Shown here: positions 3,971 through 46,552 of the stretch, in pieces
Numbering within the stretch: position 1 is the first letter of the stretch
How the letters are laid out: each line of letters begins with the position of its first letter
NCBI GenBank assembly: GCA_002329465.1
Contig: DCTW01000004.1
Location: 66,933-130,932 of the forward strand
Source: Candidatus Woesebacteria bacterium UBA1430
GTDB taxonomy: Bacteria; Patescibacteriota; Microgenomatia; UBA8517
Reading direction: 5' to 3'
DNA: 64,000 nt
The notes under the pieces: generated by a model
Told to the model about the DNA's origin: nothing
The model's input: only the letters and a program-made list of their open reading frames with translations
Database searches by the model: none
Program-made: the position numbers and the translations under genes

Positions 3971-3978
3971 GAGGTAAT

Positions 3979-24784: not shown

Positions 24785-24797
24785 TTAAAATAAAAAA

Positions 24798-29679: not shown

Positions 29680-30072
29680 GTGGACACAAACCCAAAAAAC
29701 CCAACGGTGTTAATAATAGAAGACGATCAAGCCCTGGCAAAAATGTATTCGACAAAATTCCAAATGGAAGGCTTCAACTCAATAGTTGCAAAAGACGGTA
29801 AAAGCGGTATGGATTTTCTAAATACAAAAAGCCCTGACGCGATACTTCTCGACATCATGCTTCCCGGATATTCGGGATTGGATCTTCTCTCAAGCCTCCA
29901 ATCAAACCCCAAAGCCAAAAATACTGTTATATTAGCGCTCACAAATCACCCTCAAAAAGAAAGCGCTCAAAAAGCACTAAACCTCGGAGTAAAAGAATAT
30001 CTTGTAAAAGCAATGCAAACACCCGAAGAAGTAGTAGAAAAAGTCAAAAAATACCTAAATCTTCCACAATGA
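29680..30072 (+). CDS. Stand-alone response-regulator receiver domain (CheY-like)
   Basis: VLIIEDD, phospho-acceptor context AILLDIMLPGYSG, ILALTN, EYLVKA. All five conserved receiver positions are present. GTG start. ATGA overlap with the next gene. Confidence 0.85.
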   Translation: MDTNPKNPTVLIIEDDQALAKMYSTKFQMEGFNSIVAKDGKSGMDFLNTKSPDAILLDIMLPGYSGLDLLSSLQSNPKAKNTVILALTNHPQKESAQKALNLGVKEYLVKAMQTPEEVVEKVKKYLNLPQ

Positions 30073-31226
30073 GTCTTCAGGCCAAAACAAAACTGCCGTA
30101 TATCATTTTTATTTTTACTTTTTTAATCTATCTATTAACCTCAGGAGGCAACACTCCCTATAACTACTTTGTACTTTTCGCAGAAAGTTTCACAAAAGGC
30201 AAATACTGGATCGAGTCGGCGCCACCCTGGCTAAACGAACTCGTACCCACCGGCAGGGGACGCTACTATCTTGTCTATCCGCCAATGCCTTCTATCCTTC
30301 TTATGCCCTTCGTTCTATTCTTCGGCACCGCCTTTCCACAACAAATTCTGGCACACCTGTTGGGAGCTGGTTCAGTAACCTTAACATACCAAATAGCTCA
30401 AAAAAAACTGAAGTCGGCAAAAAAAGCACTTTGGGTATCCACGCTGACGGGATTTGGAACAATCATATGGTTTCTCTCAGCTACAGGCTCCGCCTGGTAT
30501 TTGGGACAAATATCAGCGTATTTTTTTGTAACGGCTGCAATTTACGAAACCGTCTCAAAAAAACGCCCAATTGCAATAGGGCTTTTCCTGGGAGCAGCCT
30601 ATCTTTCACGACTCCAAACTATACTTACTCTGCCTCTTATACTTTACCTTACCAATAAAGAAAGATTTAGTACTTGGCCAAAAATTTTAATCATACTAAG
30701 TATTTTTCTATCAATAAACTTCGGGTATAATTTCATTCGCTTCGGATCAATTCTTGATAAAGCATATATACTAATCCCGGGCGTTTTGAATGAACACTGG
30801 TACTCCAAAGGTCTTTTCCACCCAAGCTACATACCAAGACATATCAAAACAATTCTGCTGGAATTGCCCAAATTCTCAAAAAACCCTCCATTCATATGGC
30901 CGTCATGGGCCGGACTTGCTATTTGGATCACAACACCCGCATTTATATTTTCTCTATTCGCACCTCTCAAAAAAGCCGAGGTGGCTTTTTCTTGGCTGGT
31001 AATTTTTCTAGTATCAGCAGTAATATTTATGCACGGAACAGTAGGGTTCAGTCAATTCGGATACCGCTTTGCTGTCGACTTCTATCCGGTACTAATTTTT
31101 TTAATCATCATCTATCTTAAAAAAACAAATCTAAACTTCATCCACTGGACTCTTCTTACAATTTCGGTAATAGTTAACACATGGGGAGTACTGTGGATAA
31201 ACAAATTTGGCTGGGTATCCTTCTAA
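30069..31226 (+). CDS. GT-C fold membrane glycosyltransferase (ArnT/PMT_2-like)
   Basis: 385 aa with about 10 TMs; YYLVYPPMPSILLMPF loop motif. Translationally coupled to the receiver gene. Confidence 0.65.
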   Translation: MSLQAKTKLPYIIFIFTFLIYLLTSGGNTPYNYFVLFAESFTKGKYWIESAPPWLNELVPTGRGRYYLVYPPMPSILLMPFVLFFGTAFPQQILAHLLGAGSVTLTYQIAQKKLKSAKKALWVSTLTGFGTIIWFLSATGSAWYLGQISAYFFVTAAIYETVSKKRPIAIGLFLGAAYLSRLQTILTLPLILYLTNKERFSTWPKILIILSIFLSINFGYNFIRFGSILDKAYILIPGVLNEHWYSKGLFHPSYIPRHIKTILLELPKFSKNPPFIWPSWAGLAIWITTPAFIFSLFAPLKKAEVAFSWLVIFLVSAVIFMHGTVGFSQFGYRFAVDFYPVLIFLIIIYLKKTNLNFIHWTLLTISVIVNTWGVLWINKFGWVSF

Positions 31227-32608
31227 TACCTGCCTCTTTGGCGCTATATTCCTTAACTTTACTAAAAGACGTCGGCTTTTGGGACACGGCAGAATTCCAA
31301 ACCATCCTCTACACGCTCGACATCGCACACCCCACAGGCTACCCCACTTACATACTTTTAGGAAAACTGTTTCTTATTTTACTCCCGCTAAAAAATGTAG
31401 CACTTCAAATCAATTTTCTCTCAAGCATCCTTATATCTCTAGGATTATACTTTATTTCAAATTCAATATTCACAATCACCAAAAACAAATATGTCTCAAT
31501 ACTCACACCCTTTTTAATAATGACTTCCTCCGTTGTTTGGTCGCTCTCAACAGCTGCAGACCCTCACGCACTCCACTTTCTTTTTACATCTCTTTTTATA
31601 TATCTCTCCACCAAAATATTAATCCAAAATAGAACAAATTTTCTGCCAACTATTTTTCTTATTACAGGGCTATCGCTCGGAAATCACTTATTATCAATAT
31701 TTTTCTTATTGCCTCTTTTTTTAATTCTGGCAACAAAAGCCAAAAAAGCCCGGCCTTTTATAATAAAATCAATTCTTTTATTCTTTCTTGGTCTAAGCGT
31801 CTATGCGCTACTGCCGATAATTTCTTACTTTAAACCTCCCCTAACTACCGATTATTCTATAAACAGTCTTGATTCCTTTAGCCGCCACGTTTTCGGCAAA
31901 GATTTTAGTCCCCACTCCGGAAAATGGATCGGAGGAAGCGTGCTTTCAGCCCTTCAATTTTATTCGATTCAACTAAAACAATTTATCTCAATCGTTTTTC
32001 TGCCTCTTGCTTTAATTGGAATTGTCTCTCTTAAAAAAGAAAATCGCATTCTAAACTTTTCTCTATCATTTATTTTTCTCGGTACACTCCTTTTCAGCCT
32101 TAGATATCAAAACGCCGTTATAGAAAGATATTTCGCACCCTCTTTTGTTGTTATTCTTATCTGGATATCCTCATCAATCAACCCAATTTTACGTCTCTCT
32201 AAAAAATTCAAATTTATAGCTCTCCTTAGTTTTATACTTATTATCACAGTCCAAACAACAAAAAACATAAAAACAGTCTTTCCCTTAGTAAAACAAAACG
32301 GGTCAAACTCAGCGCGCACTTTTGCCGAAAAAACCATGGATCTGCTTCCGAAAAATTCGGCAATTATCTCTTGGTGGAGTTATTCTACACCGCTTTGGTA
32401 TCTACAAAAAGTCGAAGGAAAAAGGCAAGACGTTTTAATAATTAACGCGTCACAAAACGAATGGGAACAAATTGCGCTTAATCTTTATTCAAAAAAAGAA
32501 ATTTTCTTAATCAATTACATCGATCTTAAAAACCCTTCCTTTAAACTAATACACAAAGAGCACCTCTATCAATTTACTCCCCTGTCTTATGAGAATTCTC
32601 CCCAATAA
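31181..32608 (+). CDS. DUF2723 (TMEM260-like) GT-C glycosyltransferase
   Basis: GFWDTAEFQTILYTLDIAHPTGYPTYILLGKLF is the hallmark DUF2723 N-terminal loop. Polytopic, followed by a soluble C-terminal domain. Confidence 0.75.
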   Translation: MGSTVDKQIWLGILLIPASLALYSLTLLKDVGFWDTAEFQTILYTLDIAHPTGYPTYILLGKLFLILLPLKNVALQINFLSSILISLGLYFISNSIFTITKNKYVSILTPFLIMTSSVVWSLSTAADPHALHFLFTSLFIYLSTKILIQNRTNFLPTIFLITGLSLGNHLLSIFFLLPLFLILATKAKKARPFIIKSILLFFLGLSVYALLPIISYFKPPLTTDYSINSLDSFSRHVFGKDFSPHSGKWIGGSVLSALQFYSIQLKQFISIVFLPLALIGIVSLKKENRILNFSLSFIFLGTLLFSLRYQNAVIERYFAPSFVVILIWISSSINPILRLSKKFKFIALLSFILIITVQTTKNIKTVFPLVKQNGSNSARTFAEKTMDLLPKNSAIISWWSYSTPLWYLQKVEGKRQDVLIINASQNEWEQIALNLYSKKEIFLINYIDLKNPSFKLIHKEHLYQFTPLSYENSPQ

Positions 32609-33686
32609 TCTTGCCAACCCACTCATGCATTCCGCTCCAATCTCCAGCGATGGGAACTAAAACATACAAATTATTATAATCAGAAAATGGCGGGTTTTTA
32701 AGTAAACTTTCCTCAAAATCATGCATCTTTATCTTATCCCTAAAATCATAAGCTTTCCGCGCCAAAAAAACCTGGGCATATTCATCCATATCAGTCTCCG
32801 AAATAGATTTTATTAAATCCCAAAAACCAAAAAGTTTCCGCGGATGATACAAAAAATCACGACTTACTAACTTATCTTTAATCGCCACCATCACAAGCTG
32901 TGCACGTCTTGTCCTTGCAAAATCAGTGCCTTCTTCCAAATCCTCCGAATGCCTCGAACGCACATACTTTAAAGCAGTACCTCCATCCATGGTTGTCAGC
33001 CCTTTTTCAAACCTTATCGTCTCATACCGGCAAGCATACTCAGGGTCTCCATCACACAAATCTTCCCCTCTCCCCTCGATGGGATATTTTTTATCTTCAA
33101 AGCTCCTTGGTACGTCAACTTCCACCCCACCCAAATAATCAACGACCTCTTTAAATCCGTCAAAATTCATAGAAAAACCGTAATGAATAGGTATTCCCAA
33201 TATCTCCTCAACATAAGACTTGGCAAGAACAATTCCACCACCCGCCCTTCTTTCATTACCTATGCGATAAGCTCCATTAAGCTTGTCTCCAAGCTCCTCA
33301 ATCCATATATCACGAGGAACAGGTATTAAATCCACGCCAGAGCCGTAAATATCAAAAGAAGCAACTATCATAGTATCTGATAAAATTGGATTTTTTTCTC
33401 CGTCACCCGATAAGCCGAGAAAAAGCAAATTAGTTCTTCCGTCTGTAGATTTTACTTTTTTATTACTTGCAAAAATAAATGTAAAGCCCAATTCAGCGTA
33501 TTTATAATAACCGCTGAATTTCAGAAAAAAAACACCCACAGCCACAAAAAGGCTCAAAAAAACAAATATAGATAAAAAAACGCCGAAACGAACAAACAAA
33601 ATATGTCTTGCCAAAATTCTTCTTTTTACTCTCGCCAAAAACCTTTTCCTTCTCTCTGATAAAAATTTATGCCTTCTTTTTTCCAT
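32574..33686 (-). CDS. LytR-CpsA-Psr (LCP) family glycopolymer-to-peptidoglycan phosphotransferase
   Basis: N-terminal TM; TNLLFLGLSG...SDTMIVASFD...VDLIPVPRDIWI; RSRH...DFARTRRAQ. The ATG is at 33686 (the track start 33710 is TTG). The 3' end overlaps the DUF2723 gene convergently by 35 nt. Confidence 0.85.
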   Translation of the reverse strand: MEKRRHKFLSERRKRFLARVKRRILARHILFVRFGVFLSIFVFLSLFVAVGVFFLKFSGYYKYAELGFTFIFASNKKVKSTDGRTNLLFLGLSGDGEKNPILSDTMIVASFDIYGSGVDLIPVPRDIWIEELGDKLNGAYRIGNERRAGGGIVLAKSYVEEILGIPIHYGFSMNFDGFKEVVDYLGGVEVDVPRSFEDKKYPIEGRGEDLCDGDPEYACRYETIRFEKGLTTMDGGTALKYVRSRHSEDLEEGTDFARTRRAQLVMVAIKDKLVSRDFLYHPRKLFGFWDLIKSISETDMDEYAQVFLARKAYDFRDKIKMHDFEESLLKNPPFSDYNNLYVLVPIAGDWSGMHEWVGKIIGENSHKTGE

Positions 33687-33742
33687 GTTAGAATAAGTCT
33701 TGCAAAACAAAAACGCTTTTAATTATTGTATTTTATACCAAA

Positions 33743-35605
33743 ATGGCAGACAAGCTAACTGATAATCTTAATAAGGAACAAATCAAAGCAGTTACCTTCG
33801 ACGGAAAAGCGCTTCTTATTTTAGCAGGCGCCGGTTCCGGCAAAACAAAAGTCCTAACACACAGAGCCGCTTGGTTTATCAAAAACAAAAAAATAAATCC
33901 GGACCAAATCCTCCTTCTGACATTCACAAATAAGGCATCGGATGAGATGAAACTTCGCATAGCAAAACTATCAGGAAATGTACCTAAATATTCGGGTACA
34001 TTTCACAGCTTTTGCGTCAAAGTATTAAGAATAGACGGCCAAAAAATCAATATTCCAAAAAATTTTATAATCTACGACCAAACCGATCAAAAAGAAATTA
34101 TTAAAAGCATCATTGAAAAGCGCAATTTCAACAAAGACAGCTTCAAACCCGAGGCCTTTCTATCACAAATATCTGACGCAAAAAACCAAATGATAAGTCC
34201 GGTTCATTACGCTGAAATTGCAAATGGAGAATTCCAAGAAAAAGTATTCGCAATATATGTAGAATACGAAAAATATCTTAAAAAAGCAGGGGGGTTAGAT
34301 TTTGATGATTTACTTCTTAAAACAGTAGCTCTGTTTCAAGAAAAACCAGAGGTACTAAATATTTGGCAGGAAAAAACAGCTCAAATTCTAGTTGACGAAT
34401 GGCAAGACACAAACAAAATTCAGTATCAACTTACAAAACTGCTAATTGGGCACAGAAAAAATATCACAGCAGTAGGCGATGCCTCGCAATCAATATATAG
34501 CTGGAGAGGGGCAGATTACAGAAACATCAACTATCTCACAAAAGATTTTCCCGACATAAAAATAATAAATCTTGAACAAAATTACCGCTCCACCCAGACA
34601 ATATTAAACGCCGCAAATTCGGTAATATCCAAAAATACCACGCATCCAATTCTTAAACTCTGGACTCGTAACGCCCAAGGAGAAAAAATAAAACTTTTTA
34701 GGGCAAACAGCGGACAAGACGAAGTCCGCTACATTGTGGAAAAAATTAACGAACTCACGCGCACAGGCTACAATTACAGCGACGTTGCAATTCTTTATAG
34801 AACCAACGCCCAGTCCCGCACGATCGAAGAAGCACTTCTTCAAAACGGAATTCCTTATCGATTAGTTGGAGGAATACGATTCTACGATAGAACAGAAATT
34901 AAAGATATCATCTCTTATCTAAGACTAATAATTAATCCTAAAAATCCGGTATCCCTAAAAAGAGCACTCAAGACAGGAAAAAAAAGGACGCAAAACCTTC
35001 TCTTGCTCCAAAAAAGTCTGAATACGCAAAAACTAACTACTCTGGAAATTATGGACAAAACACTTAACAAAACTGATTACCTTTCAAAATTTGCCCAAGA
35101 AACGGATGAAAATTTTGCTAGGCTGGAAAACATAAAAGAGCTACGTTCTGTCGCGGCTGAATTCCAAAACATCGATGAATTTTTGGAAAACGTAGCCTTA
35201 GTTGAGGCCGAACAACTCTCGACCTCCAAATCACTCCATCAGTCATCAGTCACTAGTCATCAGTCACTAGTCACTCTCATGACTCTACATGCAGCAAAAG
35301 GGCTTGAATTTCCCGTTATATTCATAACTGGCCTTGAAGAAGGCCTTTTCCCACACTCAAGGTCGCTTTTTGACCCGGGACAATTGGAAGAGGAAAGAAG
35401 GCTCGCATACGTAGGTATAACAAGAGCAAAAGAAATCTTATTTCTCACATACGCTCAACAAAGGCTCTATTTCGGACAAAAAACAAGCAATCCTCCAAGT
35501 CGTTTCCTTTCGGACATACCAGAAGACCTATTAAACACATCAGATAATTCTGGCTATTCCCAAACGGTTAGATACGACTTCAACGATATTAACGACATAC
35601 TCTGA
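33743..35605 (+). CDS. pcrA: UvrD/PcrA-type SF1 DNA helicase (620 aa)
   Basis: LNKEQIKAVT, AGAGSGKTKVLTHR, VDEWQDTN, GDASQSIYSWRGA, NYRST, MTLHAAKGLEFPVIFITG, RRLAYVGITRAK. Confidence 0.9.
   Translation: MADKLTDNLNKEQIKAVTFDGKALLILAGAGSGKTKVLTHRAAWFIKNKKINPDQILLLTFTNKASDEMKLRIAKLSGNVPKYSGTFHSFCVKVLRIDGQKINIPKNFIIYDQTDQKEIIKSIIEKRNFNKDSFKPEAFLSQISDAKNQMISPVHYAEIANGEFQEKVFAIYVEYEKYLKKAGGLDFDDLLLKTVALFQEKPEVLNIWQEKTAQILVDEWQDTNKIQYQLTKLLIGHRKNITAVGDASQSIYSWRGADYRNINYLTKDFPDIKIINLEQNYRSTQTILNAANSVISKNTTHPILKLWTRNAQGEKIKLFRANSGQDEVRYIVEKINELTRTGYNYSDVAILYRTNAQSRTIEEALLQNGIPYRLVGGIRFYDRTEIKDIISYLRLIINPKNPVSLKRALKTGKKRTQNLLLLQKSLNTQKLTTLEIMDKTLNKTDYLSKFAQETDENFARLENIKELRSVAAEFQNIDEFLENVALVEAEQLSTSKSLHQSSVTSHQSLVTLMTLHAAKGLEFPVIFITGLEEGLFPHSRSLFDPGQLEEERRLAYVGITRAKEILFLTYAQQRLYFGQKTSNPPSRFLSDIPEDLLNTSDNSGYSQTVRYDFNDINDIL
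35241..35275 (+). repeat. 14-bp tandem repeat (AGTCATCAGTCACT x2.5) inside pcrA
   Basis: Read directly: agtcatcagtcact agtcatcagtcact agtcact. It encodes SVTSHQSLVT just before helicase motif V/VI (LMTLHAAKG). Confidence 0.85.
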
Positions 35606-35616
35606 AAAATTAATGC

Positions 35617-35625
35617 TGTTATAAT
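35617..35625 (+). promoter_or_regulatory. Extended -10 promoter (TGtTATAAT), with the fem-gene ATG 6 nt downstream (leaderless geometry)
   Basis: tgTTATAAT at 35617..35625, then AAGCTC, then ATG 35632. No SD. Confidence 0.45.
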
Positions 35626-35631
35626 AAGCTC

Positions 35632-36576
35632 ATGCTACCGCGACACCCCCTTCAATCCAAATCTTGGGCGGACTTTAGGCGTACTTGGGGTAACGAAGTC
35701 ATCAAAACCAAATATGGATATATTACTTGTCACAAGTTACCGGTTACTAGCTACAAAGTAGGCATGTTTATCCGAGGCCCCAAACCCACTCAACCAATGC
35801 TCACCGACCTTAAAAAAATTGCTAAAGAAAACAATCTAATATTTATCAAGCTCGAGCCCTTCGCCCTCAAAGAGCAAGGGCTTGAAAATCTCCTCAAGAA
35901 AAACAATTGCCTCCCGGGTAAAACTCTCTTTACTCCAACCTCCTTTTGGATCGACCTAACCAAATCCGAAGAAGAGTTAATGCAAAGCTTCTCCCCCAAA
36001 ACCCGCTACAACATCCGCCTGGCTCAAAAAAAAGGAGTCATTGTAAAAGAAGACAATTCCGATCAAGCCTTCGAGACCTACCTCAGGCTCACCCGCGAAA
36101 CCATCCAAAGGCAAGGCTTCTATGCCCACTCCGAGCGCTACCACCGCCTCATGTGGAACCACCTTCACACCAAGCCACAAGCCATAAGCCATAAGCCTTT
36201 AGCCTTCCTTCTGACCGCGACCTACCAAAAAAAAATAATAACTGCTTGGATATTATTCGCCTATAAAGGATTCCTGTATTACCCCTACGGCGCCTCCTCC
36301 GATAAATATAAAAATGTCATGGCCAATAACCTTATGATGTGGGAGGCAATCCGCTTTGGGAAAAAAAGAAACCTTAAAATATTCGATCTCTGGGGCAGGG
36401 AAGAAGGCAAGGGATTTACCCGCTTCAAAGAAGGCTACAATCCCAAAGTCGTCGAATTCGTCGGCACTTGGGATCTGATCATTAACAAACCCCTTTACAA
36501 CACCTACCGCACCATAGACTTTCTCCGCTGGATCCTCCTGCGCACCAAATCCCGCCTTATCAAGCCAAAATTCTAA
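35632..36576 (+). CDS. FemAB/FemX-family peptidoglycan interpeptide-bridge aminoacyltransferase
   Basis: PLQSKSWADFRRTWG, TRYNIRLAQKKG, YPYGASSDKYKNVMANNLMMWEAIRFGKKRNLKIFDLWG, FKEGY. Confidence 0.8.
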   Translation: MLPRHPLQSKSWADFRRTWGNEVIKTKYGYITCHKLPVTSYKVGMFIRGPKPTQPMLTDLKKIAKENNLIFIKLEPFALKEQGLENLLKKNNCLPGKTLFTPTSFWIDLTKSEEELMQSFSPKTRYNIRLAQKKGVIVKEDNSDQAFETYLRLTRETIQRQGFYAHSERYHRLMWNHLHTKPQAISHKPLAFLLTATYQKKIITAWILFAYKGFLYYPYGASSDKYKNVMANNLMMWEAIRFGKKRNLKIFDLWGREEGKGFTRFKEGYNPKVVEFVGTWDLIINKPLYNTYRTIDFLRWILLRTKSRLIKPKF

Positions 36577-37406
36577 TGGATATTCGCCAGTCCCCATCCT
36601 ATGCCCGCTTCATGTCCTTAGAAGGCTGGACAGCCGATAAATCCGAAGGCACTTACTCCTACATCAAAAAGCTCCCCCTGCTCGGCCACTTCATAAAAAT
36701 CCAGCGCCCCGCCACCATCACGCCCAAGCTAATCAAAACACTCGAAGGCAAATACCACCCCTTCCAAATCCTCCTCGAGCCCTCATTAAATACCGATTAC
36801 AGTTTACTTCTTACTGATCACGGATTTCACAAAATGAAATCTCCTTACCTACCGTCAAAAACCTTAACCTTAGATCTCACCCAATCGGAAGAAAAGCTCT
36901 ATTCTAATCTCAAAAAAGACTGCCGCTATGCCCTGCGCAAAACAAAAGACTCACTGCTCACCACCCCTTCCTCACTCCCTAAAATTTATGAATTTCGTAA
37001 AGCCTGGAAACGCTCTGTCCCCTTCACTCGCTACGTCCCCTCTCGCAAAAATCTGGAAAACCTTAAAAACTCGTTTAAAAAAACCTCCCTTTTTCTAACT
37101 ACCCCAGACTTTACAGCAGGCGCCATTTTTCTAAAAGCCGGCCCTACAGCCTACTACTGGCAAGCATTCACCGATAAAGAAGCCAGAAAAACGCTCATCC
37201 AGTACCAAATTGTCTGGCAGGGAATCCTCTGGGCAAAAAAGGAAGGAGCAAAAACATTCGATTTCGAAGGCATCTATGACAATCGCTTTCCCAACAAAAG
37301 CTGGATCGGCTTCACCTATTTCAAAAAAGGTTTCGGAGGTATAGAAATTATTTATCCGCAAAGCCTCAGCAAAACTTATTTCAAAAATCTGCTTTACAAA
37401 AAATAG
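36576..37406 (+). CDS. Second FemAB-family paralogue
   Basis: DIRQSPSYARFMSLEGW, CRYALRKT, AYYWQAF...YQIVWQGILWAKKEGAKTFDFEGIYD...FKKGFGG. TAATG overlap with the upstream paralogue. Confidence 0.72.
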   Translation: MDIRQSPSYARFMSLEGWTADKSEGTYSYIKKLPLLGHFIKIQRPATITPKLIKTLEGKYHPFQILLEPSLNTDYSLLLTDHGFHKMKSPYLPSKTLTLDLTQSEEKLYSNLKKDCRYALRKTKDSLLTTPSSLPKIYEFRKAWKRSVPFTRYVPSRKNLENLKNSFKKTSLFLTTPDFTAGAIFLKAGPTAYYWQAFTDKEARKTLIQYQIVWQGILWAKKEGAKTFDFEGIYDNRFPNKSWIGFTYFKKGFGGIEIIYPQSLSKTYFKNLLYKK

Positions 37407-40314
37407 AATACTCACAATTCCGACAAATATAGTTTCCGCTACATCTAAAATCGCTCTTTTCTATCTCTCTTTTAACCTCAAAAATTCTCTTTTTTGCCTC
37501 TTCAAGCTGCGCTCTGCTCCTTTTGGTAACTATTTTTGTTTGGTCCTCAAAATAATAAAGCGATAACTTGATATCCTCAACATCCTTACCGAACGGTTCT
37601 GTATTTATACCTGTTGCGGCCAAAGCATAAATACTAAGCTGAAGATCTTTATCAGCCTCCTTCTGCGTCGGAATTTTTTCTCCTGTTTTATAATCAACAA
37701 TCTCTATCCCCCCATTACTCAATAAATCAACCCTATCCATCTTTCCGCCAATTCTTACCTTCTCCCGTCCGCTTTCCGTTTCTTCATAAAGCGGAATAGA
37801 AAAATCCTGTTCAACCAATACAGGCAAATTTGCATAATCAAACTCTTTATCATAATACTCTCTCAAAAAGACAAGCGCTTTTTCAAAAGCCTCTTTTTCA
37901 TGTCTTTTGCTTTTATATCCGGCTGTGATCCAATCATCCTCAAAAATCTCTTCAAGCAACTTTTTACTAGGCTTTCTACCCAACTTTACTAAATTATAAA
38001 AATCTTTCAATGTTTCATGAACGCTTGTACCAAGGCTCATTGAAGGTGATGGAGAAGTAGGAATCTTCAAAATATAAGAAAGCTTATAATGAAGAGGGCA
38101 AATTTCAAACGTCCTTATCTGGGAATACGAAAGATAGTAAACCACGTGCCTTACCTGGGAACCAGACAAACCGGCCTTTTTTTCTCCTGAATAATCAAGA
38201 AAGGATAGCTGTTTTACGCTTTTCTGCTCCAAAAAAGAAATGTCCTCACCCAAAGCTTCAAATAAAAAAGGCGACAAACGCCTTTGCCTTTTACCCTCAG
38301 AATAATAGTCGGCTGCGCTAAAAAACAAATACTTCTGAGCTCTTGTCATACCCACATAAAAAAGTCTTCTTTCCTCCTGAAGATGATAATCACCCGAAGG
38401 CAGAGTCTCCTTTATAAGGTCATCGGGAATCGGTATAGGCTCGCGCCTCTCAACCGAAGGAAATCTCTGCTCAACAAGGTTTACCAAAAAAACAACAGGA
38501 AACTCAAGCCCCTTACTCGAATGTACAGTCAATATGTTTACAGCATTATTCTCACCCCAATCTTCTGTCGAAGCCAAAGGAGACTCACCAAGCTCCATGG
38601 ACAAATCTACCCAGTCAACAACGCTGTAAACATCGGCTTTTTCATAATCTGTTTCAAAAGATTTTAATTTATCAAAAAACTTAGATATATTCTTAGCTTC
38701 GCTTTCCGCTTTTTCGCTGGAGGGATCAACCAAATTTTTAATAATACCCGTGTCTTCCAAAAAATAATACAATATCTGTCCCGCAGTCTCTTTTTTTATT
38801 AAACCCAAATGACGCTTAATAATTTTAACCAAATCTAAAACCTTTTTTTTGGATTTTTCGCTTATATTATTTATCTCCCCAACGCGCTCTGCAGCCTCAT
38901 ACAAAGACATATTATTTTTCTTTGCATAACTACCAATAAACGAAACATCTCTAGAATCAAGCTTCAAATAATCCAAAGAAAGAACCCTGTAAAAAGAAAC
39001 TGAATCAGTAGGATCATAAAGCACCTTTAGATACGAAATAAAATCTACCACCTCGGGCTGTCTAAAAAGCCGCCCCGGCCCCAAAAACTGATAGGGCACC
39101 CCCGCCCTTGAAAAGGCACGAACAAAAGCCTCAGCCTGATTATTTGCTCGAACAAGCACTGCAAAATCTCTAAACTCAAAATTTTCCAAATCCACAAGTT
39201 CTAAAACCTTTTTAGCCACAAGCTCAGCCTCTTCTTCACCCCTTTGCGCATGTATAAAAAATACTCCACCGGAATCACTTTCTAAATCACAGGAAAGCTT
39301 TTTCTCAATCCCTTCAATCGCCTCGAGCCTATCCGGATTGTTATTCTGAATCAATTTATACGATGCATCCAAAATTTTCTGTATTGACCTGTAATTTTTA
39401 GTCAAAACAACAACCTTAGCCTTAGGAAAAGTTCTGCGAAACTGAAAAATATTACTAACGGCAGCACCCCTAAATCTATATATGCTTTGGTCATCGTCTC
39501 CACAAACAGTAATATTGGCTCGATTACCAGAAAGCAAAATTGCAAGCTCATTTTGAGCAAAATTAGTATCCTGAAACTCATCAACAAGTATATATTTAAA
39601 CTGCTCCCTGTACCTCGAAAGTATATTTGGCCGCTTTCTAAAAAGATCAAGGGTCTTTACTATCAAATCGCCAAAATCCATTAAACCCTCACGAATTTTT
39701 ATCTTGTCGAATTTTTTATAAGCCTGCGCAAGTTCGCTCCATTTCTCAATCTCCAGCTTTTCTTCCTTATCCGGTTTGGAATTTAACGTTTTTATTTTAG
39801 AATTTACCCAGGCAATATATTCACCCGGGGCTATATCCTCGTCCTGAAGTCTGGAAAAATGCTTCAAAATAGCGTCCAAAAATTTGTTTGGATTCCCAAG
39901 TGGTCTAAAATAAGACAAACCAAGCTCAAAAATATTCTCTCTCAAAAGCCCGACAGACTCTGCTCCTGTTAATAATCTATATCTTGGATTAAGCCCAACC
40001 TCCAAAGCTTCTGCCCTCAAAACTTTGTCGCAAAAAGAATGAAAAGTAGATATCCACATCTGCGTATATCCGTATGGCATCTCCTGATCAACGCGCTCAA
40101 CCATCTCAAAAGACGCCTTCTCGGTAAAACTCAAAGCAAGTATCTCATTAGGCCTCGCCAACCCGGAAGAAATAAGATATTTAATTCTTTCTGTTATCAC
40201 GGTTGTCTTACCCGTACCCGCCCCCGCAATAATAAGAAGCGGCCCTTTTTTATGTTCAACCGCGTCAATTTGCTGCCTATTAAGAGTCCTGCTCGTCAAG
40301 AAGTTTTTCCCCAC
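37381..40314 (-). CDS. UvrD-type helicase fused to a C-terminal PD-(D/E)XK (RecB/Cas4-like, 4-Cys) nuclease; AddA-like single-chain helicase-nuclease
   Basis: AGAGTGKTTVITER, VDEFQDTN, GDDDQSIYRFRGA, NYRS, VHSSKGLEFPVVFL, RRLFYVGMTRAQ. Nuclease part: ICPLHY...GKMDRVD...IEIVDYKTG...QLSIYALA...CRNCEYSIFC (C-x2-C-x5-C). Confidence 0.88.
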   Translation of the reverse strand: MGKNFLTSRTLNRQQIDAVEHKKGPLLIIAGAGTGKTTVITERIKYLISSGLARPNEILALSFTEKASFEMVERVDQEMPYGYTQMWISTFHSFCDKVLRAEALEVGLNPRYRLLTGAESVGLLRENIFELGLSYFRPLGNPNKFLDAILKHFSRLQDEDIAPGEYIAWVNSKIKTLNSKPDKEEKLEIEKWSELAQAYKKFDKIKIREGLMDFGDLIVKTLDLFRKRPNILSRYREQFKYILVDEFQDTNFAQNELAILLSGNRANITVCGDDDQSIYRFRGAAVSNIFQFRRTFPKAKVVVLTKNYRSIQKILDASYKLIQNNNPDRLEAIEGIEKKLSCDLESDSGGVFFIHAQRGEEEAELVAKKVLELVDLENFEFRDFAVLVRANNQAEAFVRAFSRAGVPYQFLGPGRLFRQPEVVDFISYLKVLYDPTDSVSFYRVLSLDYLKLDSRDVSFIGSYAKKNNMSLYEAAERVGEINNISEKSKKKVLDLVKIIKRHLGLIKKETAGQILYYFLEDTGIIKNLVDPSSEKAESEAKNISKFFDKLKSFETDYEKADVYSVVDWVDLSMELGESPLASTEDWGENNAVNILTVHSSKGLEFPVVFLVNLVEQRFPSVERREPIPIPDDLIKETLPSGDYHLQEERRLFYVGMTRAQKYLFFSAADYYSEGKRQRRLSPFLFEALGEDISFLEQKSVKQLSFLDYSGEKKAGLSGSQVRHVVYYLSYSQIRTFEICPLHYKLSYILKIPTSPSPSMSLGTSVHETLKDFYNLVKLGRKPSKKLLEEIFEDDWITAGYKSKRHEKEAFEKALVFLREYYDKEFDYANLPVLVEQDFSIPLYEETESGREKVRIGGKMDRVDLLSNGGIEIVDYKTGEKIPTQKEADKDLQLSIYALAATGINTEPFGKDVEDIKLSLYYFEDQTKIVTKRSRAQLEEAKKRIFEVKREIEKSDFRCSGNYICRNCEYSIFCKADF

Positions 40315-41275
40315 CTTCCTTCAAATTATTAGTAGCGTCTATTTTTCTCCCCAAATGACTAAAATAAGTCAAAACATTACCCATCATATTATAAGAATTA
40401 TTTATATGCCTCTGAAGAGTAGCCAAACTTTCTTCCACTCTTGAATAATCCTTTCTTATTGCCCTAAGCATCCCAAACACCTCACGAGCTTGTGTTTCAA
40501 TTTTCTTTCCTTCAAACGACAAAAGAATAGTTTGAAGATGTGAATATAAAGTAGTAGGGGAGACCGGATAAACCCTCGCCCTTTGTGCAATCTCTAAAAG
40601 CTCCTGCTCTCTCACAAGCTCATAATAAACCGCTTCACTAGGCACATACATAAGCGCAAAATCCATGGTTCCTTCATCGGGCAATATATACTTCCGACTA
40701 ATATCTTTTATGTGCTTTTTAATATCTCTTATAAAAGCTTTTCGATGTAAATTTACATCTTCTCCCTCGGCTTTAGACATTTTCTGAAAATTTTCCATTG
40801 GAAATTTAGAATCAATAGGAAGTATACCGGCACCAGTTTTTATAGCAGCGTCAACCTTTTCACCGGATTTAAAAGTGTACTGAAGAAAAAAACTGCTCTT
40901 CGGAAACATCTGGGCAATCAAATCCTTCAAAACTTGCTCTCCAATATTTCCTCTAAGCTTCGGGCTCTGAAGAAATTCTTGAAGCTCCTTCATTCCTCTT
41001 CCGATTTCACTAAACTCACCAATATTTCTCTGAACTTGTCCTATCACCTTCGCAGCATTATCAAGCCTCTCATTAAGAGATTGAGTATTTTTCTGTAAAG
41101 ACTCAAGTAGTGTCTTTCTATCCTCCTTAGAACCCTCCTGAAGAAGCTTTACTATTTCCATCAATTCGTTAGAAGGCTTTTGTTTTTCAGAAATATCGTT
41201 AAGTTTCTTGTTTACCCACAATCCCAAAATCAAAATCCCGCCCAAAATTAATATCAGAATTATAATCGGATCCAT
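40280..41275 (-). CDS. rmuC: DNA recombination protein RmuC
   Basis: N-terminal TM, long coiled coil, then the nuclease-like core (LPIDSKFP, FALMYVPSEAVYYE, YPVSPTTLYSHLQTI). The 3' end overlaps the helicase-nuclease start by 35 nt. Confidence 0.85.
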   Translation of the reverse strand: MDPIIILILILGGILILGLWVNKKLNDISEKQKPSNELMEIVKLLQEGSKEDRKTLLESLQKNTQSLNERLDNAAKVIGQVQRNIGEFSEIGRGMKELQEFLQSPKLRGNIGEQVLKDLIAQMFPKSSFFLQYTFKSGEKVDAAIKTGAGILPIDSKFPMENFQKMSKAEGEDVNLHRKAFIRDIKKHIKDISRKYILPDEGTMDFALMYVPSEAVYYELVREQELLEIAQRARVYPVSPTTLYSHLQTILLSFEGKKIETQAREVFGMLRAIRKDYSRVEESLATLQRHINNSYNMMGNVLTYFSHLGRKIDATNNLKEGGEKLLDEQDS

Positions 41276-41319
41276 GTTTCAACAAGCATTTTAGCACCCT
41301 CTTAGGTTAAAATAAAATA

Positions 41320-41640
41320 ATGAAATCAAAAAAAAGCCACTCAAGCGGTTTAATACTTTCTTTAATAATTATAATTCTCTGGACACTGCTCTCGGTTATT
41401 ATAGTCTTTACAAGCCCCAAAGATTTTGCCGCCATACCAATATTTTTTTCAGTTCTTTTTCTCGCTCTTTTCTTTACTCTTTCAGTAATATTCACAAACT
41501 CCAAAAAAGGTTTTTTATTCAGCTTATCCATAGTTTTTGCACTCATCCTTAGATATTTTGGCATAGGCAACCTTCTCAATATTCTCCTGCTTTTTGGATC
41601 AACCATAGCTTTCAACCTTTATATTTCAAAACACAATTGA
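41320..41640 (+). CDS. Small polytopic membrane protein (about 4 TM), unknown function
   Basis: Four regular hydrophobic helices. The mirror ORF on the minus strand looks like an antisense artefact. Confidence 0.5.
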   Translation: MKSKKSHSSGLILSLIIIILWTLLSVIIVFTSPKDFAAIPIFFSVLFLALFFTLSVIFTNSKKGFLFSLSIVFALILRYFGIGNLLNILLLFGSTIAFNLYISKHN

Positions 41641-41676
41641 CACACTCTGTTATACTTCAATTAAAGAAACAAACAA

Positions 41677-42030
41677 ATGAAAATCTCTCAAAAAAGAATA
41701 AACATCTCTTTAAAAAAAGAAATCGAAAAAGCTTTTGTTCAAAGTATTGCCGATATAAAAACGATTAATGAATCAAAAGTCTTTCTCGCGGATTTTCTAA
41801 CAAAATCAGAATTTGAAACTTTCTCCAAAAGATTGGCAGTAGCTTATTGGCTAAAAAAGGGTAGAAGCTACGAAAATATAAAACAAAACCTTAAAGTATC
41901 AAGCGCGACCATAGCCTCTGTTCAAGAAAATTTAGAAAAAAAGGGGTTTCAAATAGTACTAAAAAAGCTCGAGGCAGAAGAGTGGGCAAATCAATGGTCT
42001 GTAAAAATTAAAAAATTTGTTAGAAGATAA
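41677..42030 (+). CDS. TrpR-like YerC/YecD family DNA-binding protein
   Basis: FLTKSEFETFSKRLAVAYWLKKGRSYENIKQNLKVSSATIASV matches the YerC/YecD HTH pattern. Confidence 0.65.
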   Translation: MKISQKRINISLKKEIEKAFVQSIADIKTINESKVFLADFLTKSEFETFSKRLAVAYWLKKGRSYENIKQNLKVSSATIASVQENLEKKGFQIVLKKLEAEEWANQWSVKIKKFVRR

Positions 42031-42046
42031 ACCTTCTTGATACAAT
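42017..42046 (+). promoter_or_regulatory. Candidate metG promoter (TTGTTA-18 nt-TACAAT), with the ATG 8 nt after the -10
   Basis: Hexamers at 42017..42022 and 42041..42046; ATG at 42055; no SD. Lies inside the 3' end of the upstream gene. Confidence 0.35.
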
Positions 42047-42054
42047 ATTCCCAC

Positions 42055-43464
42055 ATGCGCTACTACATAACAACCACGCTTCCTTACGTCAACGCAGATC
42101 CGCATATCGGTTTCGCAATGGAGATAGTTGAAGCAGATTGCTTAGCTCGCTTTCACCGGTCTCTCGGGTATAGGGTAATATTCAATTTCGGAACCGACGA
42201 ACATGGCCAAAAAATATATCAAAAAGCGCTTGAGAAAAACCAAAACCCTAAAGCATATGTCGATGAATACGCCAAAAAATTCAACAATCTCAAAAAAGCT
42301 CTAAACTTAAGTTACGACAAATTCATAAGAACAACAGATCAAAACCACATAAAAGCTGCACAAAAATTTTGGGAATTATGTGACCAAAAAGGACTCATCG
42401 ATAAAAAAACATATGAAACTAAATATTGCGTCGGATGCGAAATGGAAATAACCGATTCGGAGCTTGTAAACGGGCGCTGCCCGTTACACCCGGACAAAAA
42501 AATAGAGTTAAGGCAGGAAGAAAACTATTTTTTTAAATTTTCCAAGTTTCAAAAACCCCTTCTGGAATTTTATAAAAAAAATCCAGACTTTGTTTTACCA
42601 AAAGAAAAATACAACGAAGTCATAAAATTTGTAGAATCGGGTATCAAAGACTTCAGCATATCTCGCCTAAAATCCAAAATGCCATGGGGGATTGAGGTGC
42701 CAAACGACCCAGACCATGTCATGTACGTTTGGTTTGACGCACTAATAAACTATATTTCAACCCTCGGCTGGCCGGACAAAAAAATTTCCGATTGGTGGCC
42801 TGGAATACAAATAGCAGGCAAAGACAATCTTCGCCAACAATCTGCAATATGGCAGGCAATGCTTATGGCGGCAGACATACCGAATACAAAACAAATATTT
42901 ATCCACAGCTTCGTCACACAAAATGGGCAAAAAATCAGTAAAAGCCAAGGTATCTTTGTCAATCCATATGATCTAATCAAAAAATACGGAACCGATGCGT
43001 TAAGGTATTATCTGCTTGCCAAACTCAACCCTTACCTCGATAGCGACTTTACAGTAAAAAAATTTGAAAACACCTATCAAGCAGATCTTGCAAACGGGCT
43101 CGGGAACCTCGTATCCAGGGTCTTTAAACTCGCAGATCAAAACAAAATCAAATTCAAAAAAAACAAAACTAAAAACCCGATTATAGACGAACTGAAAAAC
43201 CATCTTGAAATCTACAGATTTGATCTTGCAACCAAATCTATATGGGCTTTAATTAAAAAAACTGATAAATATCTTAACGAAAACAAGCCGTGGGAAAAAA
43301 AATCCAAAAACAAAAAATTTGTCATCTCAAACTCACTTACAAATATCTACTTCATCTCAGAAGCACTTAGTGCATTTCTACCCGAAACATCAGAAAAAAT
43401 TATATCGAGACTAATATCCGAAGAAAAACTGTCTGGCATGGTCTTATTTCCTAGGTTAAAATAA
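42055..43464 (+). CDS. metG: Methionine--tRNA ligase (short, MetG1-type without C-terminal tRNA-binding domain)
   Basis: YYITTTLPYVNADPHIGF (HIGH), the CVGC...CPLH zinc knuckle, KISKSQG (KMSKS). Start taken at ATG 42055 (the track start 42037 is TTG). Confidence 0.93.
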   Translation: MRYYITTTLPYVNADPHIGFAMEIVEADCLARFHRSLGYRVIFNFGTDEHGQKIYQKALEKNQNPKAYVDEYAKKFNNLKKALNLSYDKFIRTTDQNHIKAAQKFWELCDQKGLIDKKTYETKYCVGCEMEITDSELVNGRCPLHPDKKIELRQEENYFFKFSKFQKPLLEFYKKNPDFVLPKEKYNEVIKFVESGIKDFSISRLKSKMPWGIEVPNDPDHVMYVWFDALINYISTLGWPDKKISDWWPGIQIAGKDNLRQQSAIWQAMLMAADIPNTKQIFIHSFVTQNGQKISKSQGIFVNPYDLIKKYGTDALRYYLLAKLNPYLDSDFTVKKFENTYQADLANGLGNLVSRVFKLADQNKIKFKKNKTKNPIIDELKNHLEIYRFDLATKSIWALIKKTDKYLNENKPWEKKSKNKKFVISNSLTNIYFISEALSAFLPETSEKIISRLISEEKLSGMVLFPRLK

Positions 43465-43476
43465 ATCTATTCCAAT

Positions 43477-44958
43477 ATGCTCAGAAAATTTTTAATCAAA
43501 CACAAATCTAAATCCCTTAGATTCTTTGAAATTTTGCCCGGGTTCGTTTCTTGGAATCTAATACTTTTTCCATATTGGGGGATATTTATAATTCCGGAAA
43601 TAGTCGCCTATTTTATTCTACTTTTTAATGTCTATTGGTTCTATCAAGCTTTCGGAATTGCAATAACGGCGACGATATCTCACTTCAGAATTGAAGCAAC
43701 AAAACACTACAATTGGATATCAGATATTAAAAACTTTCCCGATTACAAAAAAGTTCACCACATAGTCATTATCCCAACATACAAAGAACCAATTCACATT
43801 CTCGACCGAACAATAAACTCACTAGCCAATCAAGAAATCTCCAAAAAACAAATCTCCGTAGTTCTGGCCATGGAATTTAAAGAAGATTCTAAAGAAAGAG
43901 AGAGAAAAGTGAATTTTCTGCAAAAAAAATTTGGAAATATTTTTGCAAATTTTTTAGTAACCGTTCACAAGCTAGCTCCGGGTGAAGCAGTCGGAAAAGC
44001 ATCAAACGAATGCTACGCTGCTATAACCGCCAAAAAAAGAATAAAAATCGACATGAACTATACAACAGCTACAAGTTGTGACGCCGATCATGTATTTCAT
44101 CCTAAACATTTTTCTGTCCTAACCTACAAATTTCTTGACGACCCAAATCGCTACAAAAAATTTTGGCAACCGGCAGTCCTTCTTTACAATAATATATGGC
44201 GTTTGCCTGCAATAACGCGCGTGCCAAATATTCTAGCCTCCATCTTTATACTCTCAATGCTTCCAAGAAAAGACAGATTAATAAACCAACAAAACTACTC
44301 ACTCTCTTTCAAACTATTAGACAAAACAGGCTACTGGGACCCGGATAGAATTCCGGAAGACTGGGGCATTTTCTTCAAAGCGTTTTTCAAAAACAAAGGA
44401 AAAATCGAAGTAGAACCTCTTTACCTGCCCCTCTATGCAGACGCCATGGAATCTACCACAACCATCAAAACTCTCAAAGGCCAATACACCCAAGTAAAAC
44501 GCTGGGCATGGGGCGTATCCGACTCTTCTTGGGTTCTCTATAACTTTTTTGTCACTCCGGGCATGTCTTTCTGGGATAAAATCACCCGCGTTTCCACTTT
44601 CGTCCATGGACACTTTCTTTGGCCTGTACACTGGTTTATAATTACAATCGGCCTTACTCTTCCCGCCATAATCAACCCGGCATTCGGCAGGACCACTCTT
44701 GGTTATATGACTCCAAAAATATCCTCGGCTATTCTTACCATTGCTCTTGCATTTCTAGTCATCCTTCTTATTCTAGACTACCTCTACAAACCCAAACGAC
44801 CCAAAAATTTTCCTTTCTGGCGCGCCATTCTAGTTCCATTCGAATTCATTCTTATGCCAATTGCAACGTTTTTCTTTACCACCCTCCCGGGTTTAGACGC
44901 CCACACCAGATTAATGCTGGGAAAATATATCGAATATAAAGTAACAGAAAAAGTTTAA
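43477..44958 (+). CDS. Membrane-embedded processive family-2 glycosyltransferase (cellulose/chitin/PNAG-synthase-like)
   Basis: IIPTYKEP, TSCDADHVF (DxD), QVKRWAWG (QxxRW). TM helices on both sides of the catalytic domain. Confidence 0.8.
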   Translation: MLRKFLIKHKSKSLRFFEILPGFVSWNLILFPYWGIFIIPEIVAYFILLFNVYWFYQAFGIAITATISHFRIEATKHYNWISDIKNFPDYKKVHHIVIIPTYKEPIHILDRTINSLANQEISKKQISVVLAMEFKEDSKERERKVNFLQKKFGNIFANFLVTVHKLAPGEAVGKASNECYAAITAKKRIKIDMNYTTATSCDADHVFHPKHFSVLTYKFLDDPNRYKKFWQPAVLLYNNIWRLPAITRVPNILASIFILSMLPRKDRLINQQNYSLSFKLLDKTGYWDPDRIPEDWGIFFKAFFKNKGKIEVEPLYLPLYADAMESTTTIKTLKGQYTQVKRWAWGVSDSSWVLYNFFVTPGMSFWDKITRVSTFVHGHFLWPVHWFIITIGLTLPAIINPAFGRTTLGYMTPKISSAILTIALAFLVILLILDYLYKPKRPKNFPFWRAILVPFEFILMPIATFFFTTLPGLDAHTRLMLGKYIEYKVTEKV

Positions 44959-45001
44959 GTTGAAGACAGCAAAACAACTGGATATACTGAAATAAAGACA
45001 A

Positions 45002-46498: not shown

Positions 46499-46552
46499 TC
46501 CATAATAATTGCCACAATTAAAACCAATACGCTAAAATAGGTAAACCTGTTT

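Follow-up and report, generated by a model that had tools for sequence, protein, structure and literature searches.

Probable in-place replacement, with continuing exchange, of a tandem FemAB-family gene pair in Candidatus Woesebacteria

The tandem FemAB-family genes fem1 and fem2 of Candidatus Woesebacteria bacterium UBA1430 have probably been replaced in place by homologous recombination from GC-richer Woesebacteria, with further exchange continuing. The window, that is, the whole stretch of DNA analysed here, comprises 64,000 nt of contig DCTW01000004.1 (positions 66,933–130,932, forward strand), and its features are collected in Table 1. The host is an ultra-small CPR bacterium. The pair would be an ancestral, translationally coupled set of FemX-type enzymes (tandem-GNAT, coiled-coil-less) that keeps one position, with PcrA on the left and a helicase-nuclease on the right, throughout Woesebacteria, and its resident alleles would have been overwritten in the lineage of the window and its sister species Ch104b (locus L052). 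The incoming DNA may have come from GC-richer Woesebacteria of the same habitats, taken up probably by natural transformation, and short-tract exchanges would still be ongoing within the window's species; DNA uptake machinery is encoded in the window (DprA, PilN and PilO). Allele replacement with ongoing exchange would explain why this locus is rich in GC3, diverges excessively at synonymous sites and carries mosaic blocks.

Table 1. Coordinates of the fem pair, its neighbours and the regions of divergence, in window positions.
Feature	Position	Strand	Remarks
PcrA/UvrD-type helicase	33743..35605	+	Conserved left neighbour of fem1; native GC3 0.349
TGtTATAAT, extended -10-like	35617..35625	+	Ends 6 nt upstream of the fem1 ATG
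fem1	35632..36576	+	314 aa; FemX-like aminoacyl-tRNA-dependent transferase by homology, without coiled-coil arm; GC3 0.568; mosaic allele
Raised-divergence zone against Ch104b (L052)	35800..37600		9–22 per cent in most 300-nt bins, background 4–6 per cent
Mosaic block 1, fem1	35838..36066	+	41 differences in ~230 nt, window against L001–L003
Mosaic block 2, fem1	36303..36390	+	21 differences in 88 nt
Smaller strain-difference clusters over the fem1/fem2 junction	36446..36620	+	36446–36480 and 36561–36620
fem2	36576..37406	+	276-aa paralogue of fem1; GC3 0.516
Convergent 26-nt overlap of the fem2 and helicase-nuclease 3' ends	37381..37406		
UvrD-type helicase fused to PD-(D/E)XK nuclease (AddA/AddB-like)	37381..40314	-	Conserved right neighbour; native GC3 0.356

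The preliminary description had read the pair as a GC-rich island wedged between helicase genes, and this is not borne out by gene order. Of 80 Woesebacteria species genomes, about 71–79 share the order LytR–PcrA–fem1–fem2–helicase-nuclease–RmuC (PcrA lies upstream of fem in 79, the helicase-nuclease downstream in 72, and Fem2 after Fem1 in 69); by presence/absence comparison, practically all of them have the pair at this site. Fem1 identities across the syntenic species genomes of the class are 56–70 per cent, and the genome whose Fem1 comes nearest from outside the clade (72 per cent aa) has this order too. No tRNA, integrase or bracketing repeat flanks the pair, whose neighbours are housekeeping genes; the sole tRNA of the window is at 50801. 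Relatives of Fem1 were absent from viral contigs, which leaves phage carriage without support. Insertion of a foreign two-gene island that brought a new cross-bridge function would agree with the outlying GC3, the sharp edges of the anomaly at the gene ends and a possible promoter of its own upstream, but the shared site, the range of Fem1 identities, the missing mobility signatures and viral relatives, and the conserved order around the nearest outside Fem1 all speak against it and make it extremely improbable. What survives of the proposed horizontal acquisition is compositionally foreign DNA and a GC-rich lineage with a related fem2 allele, and not the island insertion or the gained function. 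No function is gained; a resident orthologous pair is overwritten in place, in several events.

The promoter attributed to the pair was overstated. The extended -10-like motif is present, but it has no -35 partner in a consensus scan and is not conserved, with TGnTAnnWT found upstream in 10 of 80 relatives. The promoter scan returned no sigma-70-type site upstream of fem1, and promoter-like and terminator-like sites are no more numerous than in shuffled sequence. Transcripts begun from TGtTATAAT, if it serves as a promoter, would have little or no leader.

The compositional anomaly is strong and unambiguous, and is sited in codon third positions. GC3 is 0.568 in fem1 and 0.516 in fem2 against 0.347±0.034 (range 0.23–0.40) in the 54 other open reading frames of the window (z 6.4 and 4.9), the excess is carried by C3 (0.42 vs 0.24) with G3 not raised, and the edges are sharp and coincide with the ends of the fem genes. 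In raw GC the region is far less conspicuous: at 0.451, against 0.394±0.024 in sliding 1775-nt windows, it ranks first of 623 (z only 2.4), nearly tied with others at ~6.8 kb and 57.8 kb. The G+C values given earlier for single lines are exact (0.575 at 36061–36180, 0.517 at 36601–36660 and 0.25 at 45001–45060), although as picked extremes they are not representative, the GC of 60-nt lines having a standard deviation of 0.077 and 48 of 1066 lines reaching 0.52, four of these inside the fem genes. It was also wrong that stop-free artefact frames occur only here: 114 alternative-frame open reading frames of at least 60 aa are spread over the window, five of them in the fem region (1.78 per kb vs 2.82 per kb). 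Those lying antisense to fem (36253–36597 on the minus strand and others) were rejected as genes, given that synonymous sites vary freely between alleles and that overlapping frames of this kind are frequent throughout the window.

The foreign composition of the fem DNA is nonetheless supported by GC3. Orthologous fem genes in other Woesebacteria genomes with the same gene order have ordinary GC3, and outside the species of the window an excess of similar size in the two genes is confined to the sister species (L052/L170; z 4.5 and 4.1). Enrichment limited to third positions is also what translational selection would produce if high expression or special regulation of the fem genes favoured C-ending codons. 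However, DnaK, IF-2, NusA and PNPase of the window reach a GC3 of only 0.33–0.40, no comparable bias is seen in the orthologues of 70 other genomes, and such selection would leave the excess dS and the mosaic blocks unexplained; it is hardly to be credited here.

Synonymous divergence from Ch104b, for whose genome a literature search yielded nothing, is raised in the same two genes, dS being 0.44 in fem1 and 0.32 in fem2 against 0.11–0.26 in 13 flanking genes. Within the species, over window positions 25632–46576, the loci L001–L003 are 99.5 per cent identical to the window without indels, and 77 of the 110 mismatches fall in the fem genes, 73 within 35838–36620 and in blocks, whereas the flanks are ~99.9 per cent identical (differences of no more than 0.1 per cent on the right and ~0.4 per cent on the left). 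The blocks in fem1 diverge by 18–25 per cent, and fem1 is thus a mosaic gene, with divergent blocks set between near-identical flanks in different strains. In block 1 the window matches L166 and L167, and it is L001 that is similar to the sister species L052; in block 2 L001 is the recombinant, the window agreeing with L167 and L052 at most positions. This four-allele pattern implies at least two separate events. Among the differing fem1 codons of the window and L001 alleles 40 are synonymous and 16 are not, and the alleles differ without GC direction (33 AT-to-GC vs 28 GC-to-AT).

Given that all of these sequences are metagenome assemblies, consensus chimerism could account for some of the mosaicism: reads of co-occurring related species might have been merged at a conserved gene, the L166 and L167 contigs end inside fem2, and L167 shares one sample with the GC-rich contig L171 described below. 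Several findings argue against this as the general cause, first that the alleles turn up again in assemblies independent of one another. The L001 allele is carried on nine contigs, and essentially one fem sequence is present in the three loci inspected over their whole length (JGI, Logan DRR771679 and SRR35045362); the Ch104b allele is reproduced at 99.93 per cent by SRR6825879; and both frames are intact with mostly synonymous changes. An assembly artefact is therefore considered very improbable.

Comparable patterns in further Woesebacteria suggest that the fem locus behaves there too as a recombination hot spot. In L105/L165, an independent pair of close strains or species, nearly all of 293 mismatches fall within fem1, fem2 or the stretch immediately before fem1, with flanks differing by 0–1 per cent; local mismatch peaks occur in L040/L046 and L053/L159, and L068 is another Fem1 outlier. 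Import would not be needed if the locus were a hot spot of recombination, which is demonstrated, or of mutation, and GC3 had been raised in this lineage by GC-biased gene conversion or by a C-enriching mutational bias of the locus. The rise of C3 and not G3 speaks for this, and a slight systematic excess of fem GC3 (mean z +0.57, p 4e-7) over 70 other genomes leaves some room for gene conversion. Yet the 17–22-point excess observed here far exceeds that class-wide shift, the hot-spot pair L105/L165 has normal fem GC3 (0.33–0.35), the allele differences within the species are undirected, and a GC-rich genome with a closely related fem2 exists. Such an origin of the composition is unlikely, and replacement by imported alleles is preferred.

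The GC-rich genome in question, a candidate donor lineage, is represented by L171, a single 3.8-kb metagenomic contig without fem1 (GC 0.479) from the JGI sample that also yielded strain L167. Its fem2 is 82–83 per cent identical to that of the window in nucleotides and 78 per cent in amino acids, with blocks at 0.87–0.96, and over the 3' block the window lies nearer to L171 than to L052. The GC3 of the L171 fem2 (0.576) is akin to that of its own neighbours (0.63 and 0.54). The adjoining helicase-nuclease fragment is only 50 per cent identical in amino acids to the window's protein, which ranks 48th of 125, and when Fem2 is compared with the helicase over 5050 locus pairs, the largest residual (z 3.7) is that of the window with L171. 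Composition is what suggests the direction of transfer, from the GC-rich lineage to the window.

For fem1 the donor search returned no such lineage. Long stretches matched at no more than ~72 per cent when the fem DNA of the window, L001 and L052 was compared with 169 loci by blastn, and short matches of 80–88 per cent were confined to the conserved 3' end of fem2. A metagenome scan with Fem1 gave none above 68 per cent aa among the matches listed, and the best Fem1 matches outside the clade are at 72–74 per cent aa (P0002 and P0004). Incongruence of the Fem proteins is a matter of scale: it is absent at the coarse scale, where L004 is the nearest sampled genome outside the clade for Fem1, Fem2 and also PcrA, and visible only at the fine scale. 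Residuals of Fem1 against PcrA identity gave no discordant partner for the window.

Both open reading frames and their FemAB identity stand as first described, as does the convergent overlap with the helicase-nuclease gene, and the start of fem2 overlaps the stop of fem1 in TAATG (36574–36578). Fem1 (98.8 bits, E 3.9e-28) and Fem2 (31.6 bits, E 1e-7) pass the gathering cut-off of 24 bits for Pfam FemAB (PF02388), and their profiles align with each other over 248 columns (hhalign probability 99 per cent), as paralogues. Both stay far under the curated equivalog cut-offs, Fem1 scoring 23.7 bits against the cut-off of 500 for the NCBIfam FemX equivalog NF047883, and Fem1 and Fem2 scoring 55.8 and 15.2 against 260 for the PEP-CTERM FemAB family TIGR03019. 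In the PDB the only sequence matches at E ≤ 0.01 are 6snr and 1lrz, the former being Staphylococcus aureus FemX (E 1.8e-15 with Fem1).

The AF2 models of Fem1 (pLDDT 90.5) and Fem2 (pLDDT 93.5) predict for both proteins the Fem fold, with two GNAT-like domains as in the solved structures of FemX and FemA. The top Foldseek matches in the PDB are FemX (6snr, 1xf8 and 4ii9) and FemA for both models (E 1e-14 to 5e-19, TMq 0.74–0.78), the best being 6snr and Weissella viridescens FemX for Fem1 (TMq 0.77) and 1xf8 for Fem2 (E 1.4e-14). No long helical hairpin is present in either model, so that the coiled-coil helical arm of domain 2 is absent; the Fem1–6snr alignment passes over chain residues 223–308, and residues 181–206 of the query span that stretch. 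An FK dipeptide near the C-terminus (F265-K266 in Fem1, F249-K250 in Fem2) is conserved and aligns with the FK of S. aureus FemX, and would correspond to F304-K305 of W. viridescens FemX.

By homology, both enzymes would add successive aminoacyl-tRNA-derived amino acids to the peptidoglycan stem peptide in the manner of MurM and MurN, the acceptor being perhaps UDP-MurNAc-pentapeptide or lipid II. Such tRNA-dependent transfer to the stem peptide defines the interpeptide-branch transferases MurM/MurN, BppA1/A2 and FemXAB. The tRNA-dependent branched cross-bridge that was proposed is plausible, in that it fits the family and the predicted fold, although the Fem fold is also used in other pathways, whose enzymes (Sba18/Sbb17 and aaPGS) match the models too. 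MurJ (22094–23824) and LytR-CpsA-Psr are also encoded near the pair. A literature search for FemAB in Patescibacteria yielded incidental mention only.

The closest analogue is the murMN (fibAB) operon of Streptococcus pneumoniae, likewise two tandem FemAB-family genes with mosaic alleles of the first, in which transformation and homologous recombination have given murM alleles divergent blocks of related-species origin on an otherwise clonal background (PMC5487634). In Woesebacteria, a CPR host, the exchange extends to both genes, and the proteins are without the coiled-coil arm; in pneumococci mosaic murM has been tied to beta-lactam resistance and branched muropeptides. Unlike in the pneumococcal case, the putative donor differs in GC content, and thus the import would also be visible as a compositional anomaly. 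Mosaic pbp genes and orthologous replacements in transformable bacteria similarly show exchange in place, unchanged order, divergence in blocks and related-species donors (PMC5487634), in another gene family and another organism. Among characterized enzymes, W. viridescens FemX (1NE9, 1XF8, 4II9; 335 aa) has a similar size, the two-GNAT-domain fold and no coiled coil, and is among the best structural matches (TMq 0.74–0.77), but sequence identity is just 14–17 per cent. S. aureus FemX, FemA and FemB belong to the same Pfam family and are paralogues that act sequentially; they are ~420 aa long with a helical arm of ~85 aa, which Fem1 and Fem2 lack.

By analogy with pneumococcal murM, the fem replacement would be ordinary gene exchange of a known kind. 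A GC-rich patch can signal a resident gene that was overwritten and not one that was gained, and only gene order together with allele comparison separates the two. There is now evidence at the sequence level that uncultured CPR bacteria recombine homologously between species ~9 GC points apart, in an exchange centred on predicted cell-wall branching enzymes, a target class (murM) also remodelled by recombination in pneumococci. Should the alleles prefer different amino acids, the chemistry of the cross-bridge would vary among these organisms. A more tentative suggestion is that the fem pair of Woesebacteria is a diversifying locus at the population level, comparable to capsule or O-antigen loci, in which allele swaps by transformation alter cross-bridge chemistry; selection could then come from phage endolysins, from antibiotics, or from peptidoglycan hydrolases made by competitors or hosts. 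Were this so, episymbiotic CPR bacteria would vary at their surface in how the cell wall is branched.

The fem pair lies within low-GC, Woesebacteria-like CPR sequence (window GC 0.394), with the fem1 stop and fem2 start codons overlapping as TAATG, between two UvrD-type helicase genes, paralogues that converge on each other and share ∼30 per cent amino acid identity; a LytR-CpsA-Psr gene and MurJ also belong to the neighbourhood. The preliminary description took the pair for an island wedged between the helicases, but 80 loci, obtained by scanning a single genome for each species, mostly hold it in the same slot: PcrA stands immediately 5' of fem1 on the same strand in 79/80, the helicase-nuclease gene lies 3' on the opposite strand in 72/80, both are present in 71/80, and Fem2 follows Fem1 in 69/80; where these counts fall short, the contig usually ends. 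The conserved block also includes LytR-CpsA-Psr and RmuC. Homologues of Fem1 number in the thousands at 60–74 per cent identity, essentially all in Woesebacteria or Patescibacteria, and Fem1 is better conserved than its neighbours (∼63 vs ∼60 per cent for PcrA). No tRNA, integrase or bracketing repeat was found near the pair. The conserved synteny thus contradicts insertion and makes the pair ancestral at this position; it is not an inserted island. The 26-nt convergent overlap of fem2 with the helicase-nuclease gene is real, and an extended -10 element (TGtTATAAT) does stand 6 nt 5' of the fem1 ATG, though with no -35 partner and without conservation in relatives.

Features of the window
Feature	Position	Strand	Remark
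Alanyl-tRNA synthetase ORF	3979-5775	-	short, 598 aa; catalytic core and tRNA_SAD domain present
MurJ	22094-23824		fem neighbourhood
PilN/PilO	24212-25463	+	
PcrA/UvrD-type helicase	33743-35605	+	left neighbour of fem1
Inverted repeat	33810-33865 / 40186-40241		56 nt, 73% complementary
Inverted repeat	35390-35427 / 38339-38376		38 nt, 79% complementary
Extended -10 element	35617-35625	+	
fem1	35632-36576	+	314 aa
Mosaic block 1	35838-36066		in fem1; 41 differences, window vs L001-L003
Mosaic block 2	36303-36390		in fem1; 21 differences, window vs L001-L003
Smaller difference clusters	36446-36480 and 36561-36620		window vs L001-L003
fem2	36576-37406	+	276 aa
UvrD-type helicase fused to PD-(D/E)XK nuclease	37381-40314	-	right neighbour, convergent to fem2
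DprA	51824-52720	-	
ComM-like Mg-chelatase ATPase	53104-54636	-	

Both inverted repeats around the pair are probably conserved motifs common to the two helicase genes rather than mobile-element ends. The intergenic slots of the block are variable, as shown by extra genes in L004, the nearest sampled genome outside the clade (L004:10926-13554), and in the candidate donor contig L171 (L171:1-392 and 1869-2816); among such relatives, small unknown ORFs lie between fem1 and fem2, and a GH42-like glycoside hydrolase separates fem2 from the helicase-nuclease gene. The flanking helicase genes of several Woesebacteria are split by ∼1.1 kb inserts, of which those at L017:7035-9914 (PcrA) and L061:14825-15904 (helicase-nuclease) match Pfam Intein_splicing and Hint domains and are thus inteins; helicase matches are also split in L026, L055, L068 and L084, and both copies in the window are intein-free.

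The spot GC counts that first drew attention to the genes were arithmetically right (0.575, 0.517 and 0.25) but are extremes of a noisy statistic, since 60-nt lines of the window have a standard deviation of 0.077 and 48 of 1066 reach at least 0.52. The fem region (GC 0.451 vs 0.394±0.024) is the highest of 623 sliding windows, yet at a z of only 2.4, and the artefact ORFs thought peculiar to it number 114 across the window, with 5 in the fem region. The decisive compositional signal comes from third codon positions, with a GC3 of 0.568 in fem1 and 0.516 in fem2 (z 6.4 and 4.9) against 0.347±0.034, maximum 0.397, in the 54 other ORFs. GC1 and GC2 are ordinary, and a sliding GC3 plot has its rising step where fem1 begins and its falling step where fem2 ends. 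Translational selection on fem codons was considered as a cause, but GC3 does not exceed 0.40 in other housekeeping genes presumed to be strongly expressed. The surplus is in C3 (0.42 vs 0.24 in other + strand genes) and preserves the replicon's strong strand skew. The asymmetry is extreme: along the + strand (1-64000) G 9240 stands against C 15970, a skew of -0.27 of constant sign. Third-position skew follows gene orientation (+0.33 to +0.62 in - strand genes, -0.07 to -0.71 in + strand genes), so the bias is mutational or replicative rather than a coding effect, and L004 has the same asymmetry.

Across the 80-species set fem GC3 falls within the neighbours' spread, mostly at |z| < 2, and large outliers in both genes occur only in the window's species, whose other strains (L001-L003, L166, L167) are 99.3–99.8 per cent identical to the window, and in its sister species, represented by the complete genome Ch104b (CP055307.1; L052, L170; ∼94 per cent identical; fem GC3 0.467 and 0.455, z 4.5 and 4.1). 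In L004 (GCA_040961665.1; Fem1 72 per cent amino acid identity) gene order is unchanged and fem GC3 is ordinary (0.42 and 0.29). The mean excess over 70 Woesebacteria loci (L004-L085; z +0.57, p 4e-7 for fem1; +0.38, p 0.017 for fem2) is slight but systematic, and GC-biased gene conversion at a hot spot of recombination might account for it.

Within the species, L001-L003 match window 25632-46576 at 99.5 per cent identity with zero indels, and the fem genes hold 77 of the 110 mismatches, 73 of them within 35838-36620. Differing fem1 codons comprise 40 synonymous and 16 nonsynonymous changes, and the substitutions between the two alleles show no net shift towards or away from GC. A comparison of four alleles shows independent events: the window matches L167 in block 1 and L001 resembles Ch104b, whereas in block 2 L001 is the odd one out, the other three being alike at most positions. 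Assembly chimerism was also considered, but the same alleles were recovered in independent assemblies. Two independent contigs, L166 and L167, both break inside fem2 (at window 36899 and 37171), which suggests that strain heterogeneity breaks assemblies there. Outside the fem genes, SNPs between the window and L001 are unevenly spread, the 5.6 kb on the left (29976-35575) holding 27 of 33 and the 9 kb on the right (37407-46576) only 5; tracts of recombination may run further left, across the TMEM260-like, LytR and PcrA genes.

Against Ch104b, a background divergence of 4–6 per cent rises to 9–22 per cent in most bins from ∼35800 to 37600, dS is 0.44 in fem1 and 0.32 in fem2 vs 0.11–0.26 in 13 flanking genes, and dN in fem2 is roughly threefold that of the flanks. 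Codons 1–69 of fem1 show background divergence, yet their GC3 is already enriched (0.435), a combination suggesting that a replacement had occurred before the two species separated and that further imports came afterwards.

A candidate donor emerged from the Fem2 search, in which P0125 (79 per cent amino acid identity) lies on the 3.8-kb contig L171 from JGI sample 3300029288, also the source of strain contig L167. L171 has GC 0.479, and its fem2 (GC3 0.576; 82–83 per cent nucleotide identity to the window's) is in line with its neighbours, the GH42-like gene (0.627) and a helicase-nuclease fragment (0.541) that shares only 50 per cent amino acid identity with the window. Among 125 loci ranked for L171, the window is 48th by helicase-nuclease and first by Fem2, and the pair gives the largest positive residual of Fem2 on helicase identity among 5050 locus pairs (z 3.7). 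Identity between the two fem2 genes is 0.87–0.96 in three blocks and 0.56–0.70 in two others with loops or indels; over the 3' block L171 is nearer to the window (0.91–0.96) than the window's own sister species is (0.82–0.89). Composition thus points to a GC-rich Woesebacterium resembling L171 as the fem2 donor to the window lineage, with part of the transfer after the species split. For fem1 no comparable donor appeared among the matches listed or the fetched loci searched, and it is GC3, dS and the mosaic blocks that mark it as putatively foreign.

Other lineages show similar patterns. The flanks of L105 and L165 differ by 0–1 per cent, and nearly all of the 293 mismatches over the aligned region lie within fem1 or immediately before it (3901-4861) and in a single fem2 block (5410-5740). 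One fem2 bin of L040/L046 is 29 per cent divergent vs 5–8 per cent in most flanking bins, and L068 Fem1 is 64 per cent identical to relatives sharing 82 per cent PcrA identity. L053/L159 have one fem1 bin at 29 and one fem2 bin at 32 per cent vs ∼10 per cent upstream, but their whole right side, including the helicase-nuclease gene, is 16–33 per cent divergent, meaning that the excess extends beyond the fem genes. Across the class, the pair thus appears to be hit repeatedly by allelic exchange. GC-biased conversion alone is a weakened explanation for the window, because the L105/L165 hot spot has normal GC3 (0.33–0.35), alleles differ without GC direction, and L171 exists. The exchange in the window would show in its composition only because the donor was GC-richer. 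DprA, PilN/PilO and the ComM-like ATPase, all linked with natural transformation, fit the recombination at the fem genes and uptake by transformation, a route that we infer.

Fem1 matches Staphylococcus aureus FemX (6snr, E 1.8e-15), whose ∼85-aa coiled-coil arm is skipped in the alignment, and FemA. Profile alignment of Fem1 with Fem2 covers 248 columns at 99 per cent probability, making the two paralogues, and both proteins fall far under NCBIfam equivalog cut-offs. AlphaFold models (pLDDT 90.5 and 93.5) best match W. viridescens FemX, S. aureus FemX and FemA (TMq 0.74–0.78), then the aminoacyl-tRNA-dependent peptide synthases Sba18/Sbb17 and, after these, aaPGS/MprF domains. Their most likely function, predicted with somewhat better than even confidence, would be sequential tRNA-dependent stem-peptide branching of the MurM/MurN kind. 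The nearest known counterpart is the murMN operon of pneumococci, where transformation has brought in mosaic murM alleles from S. mitis (PMC5487634). Rather than a novel system, the fem locus represents this same known kind of event, here in a CPR bacterium.
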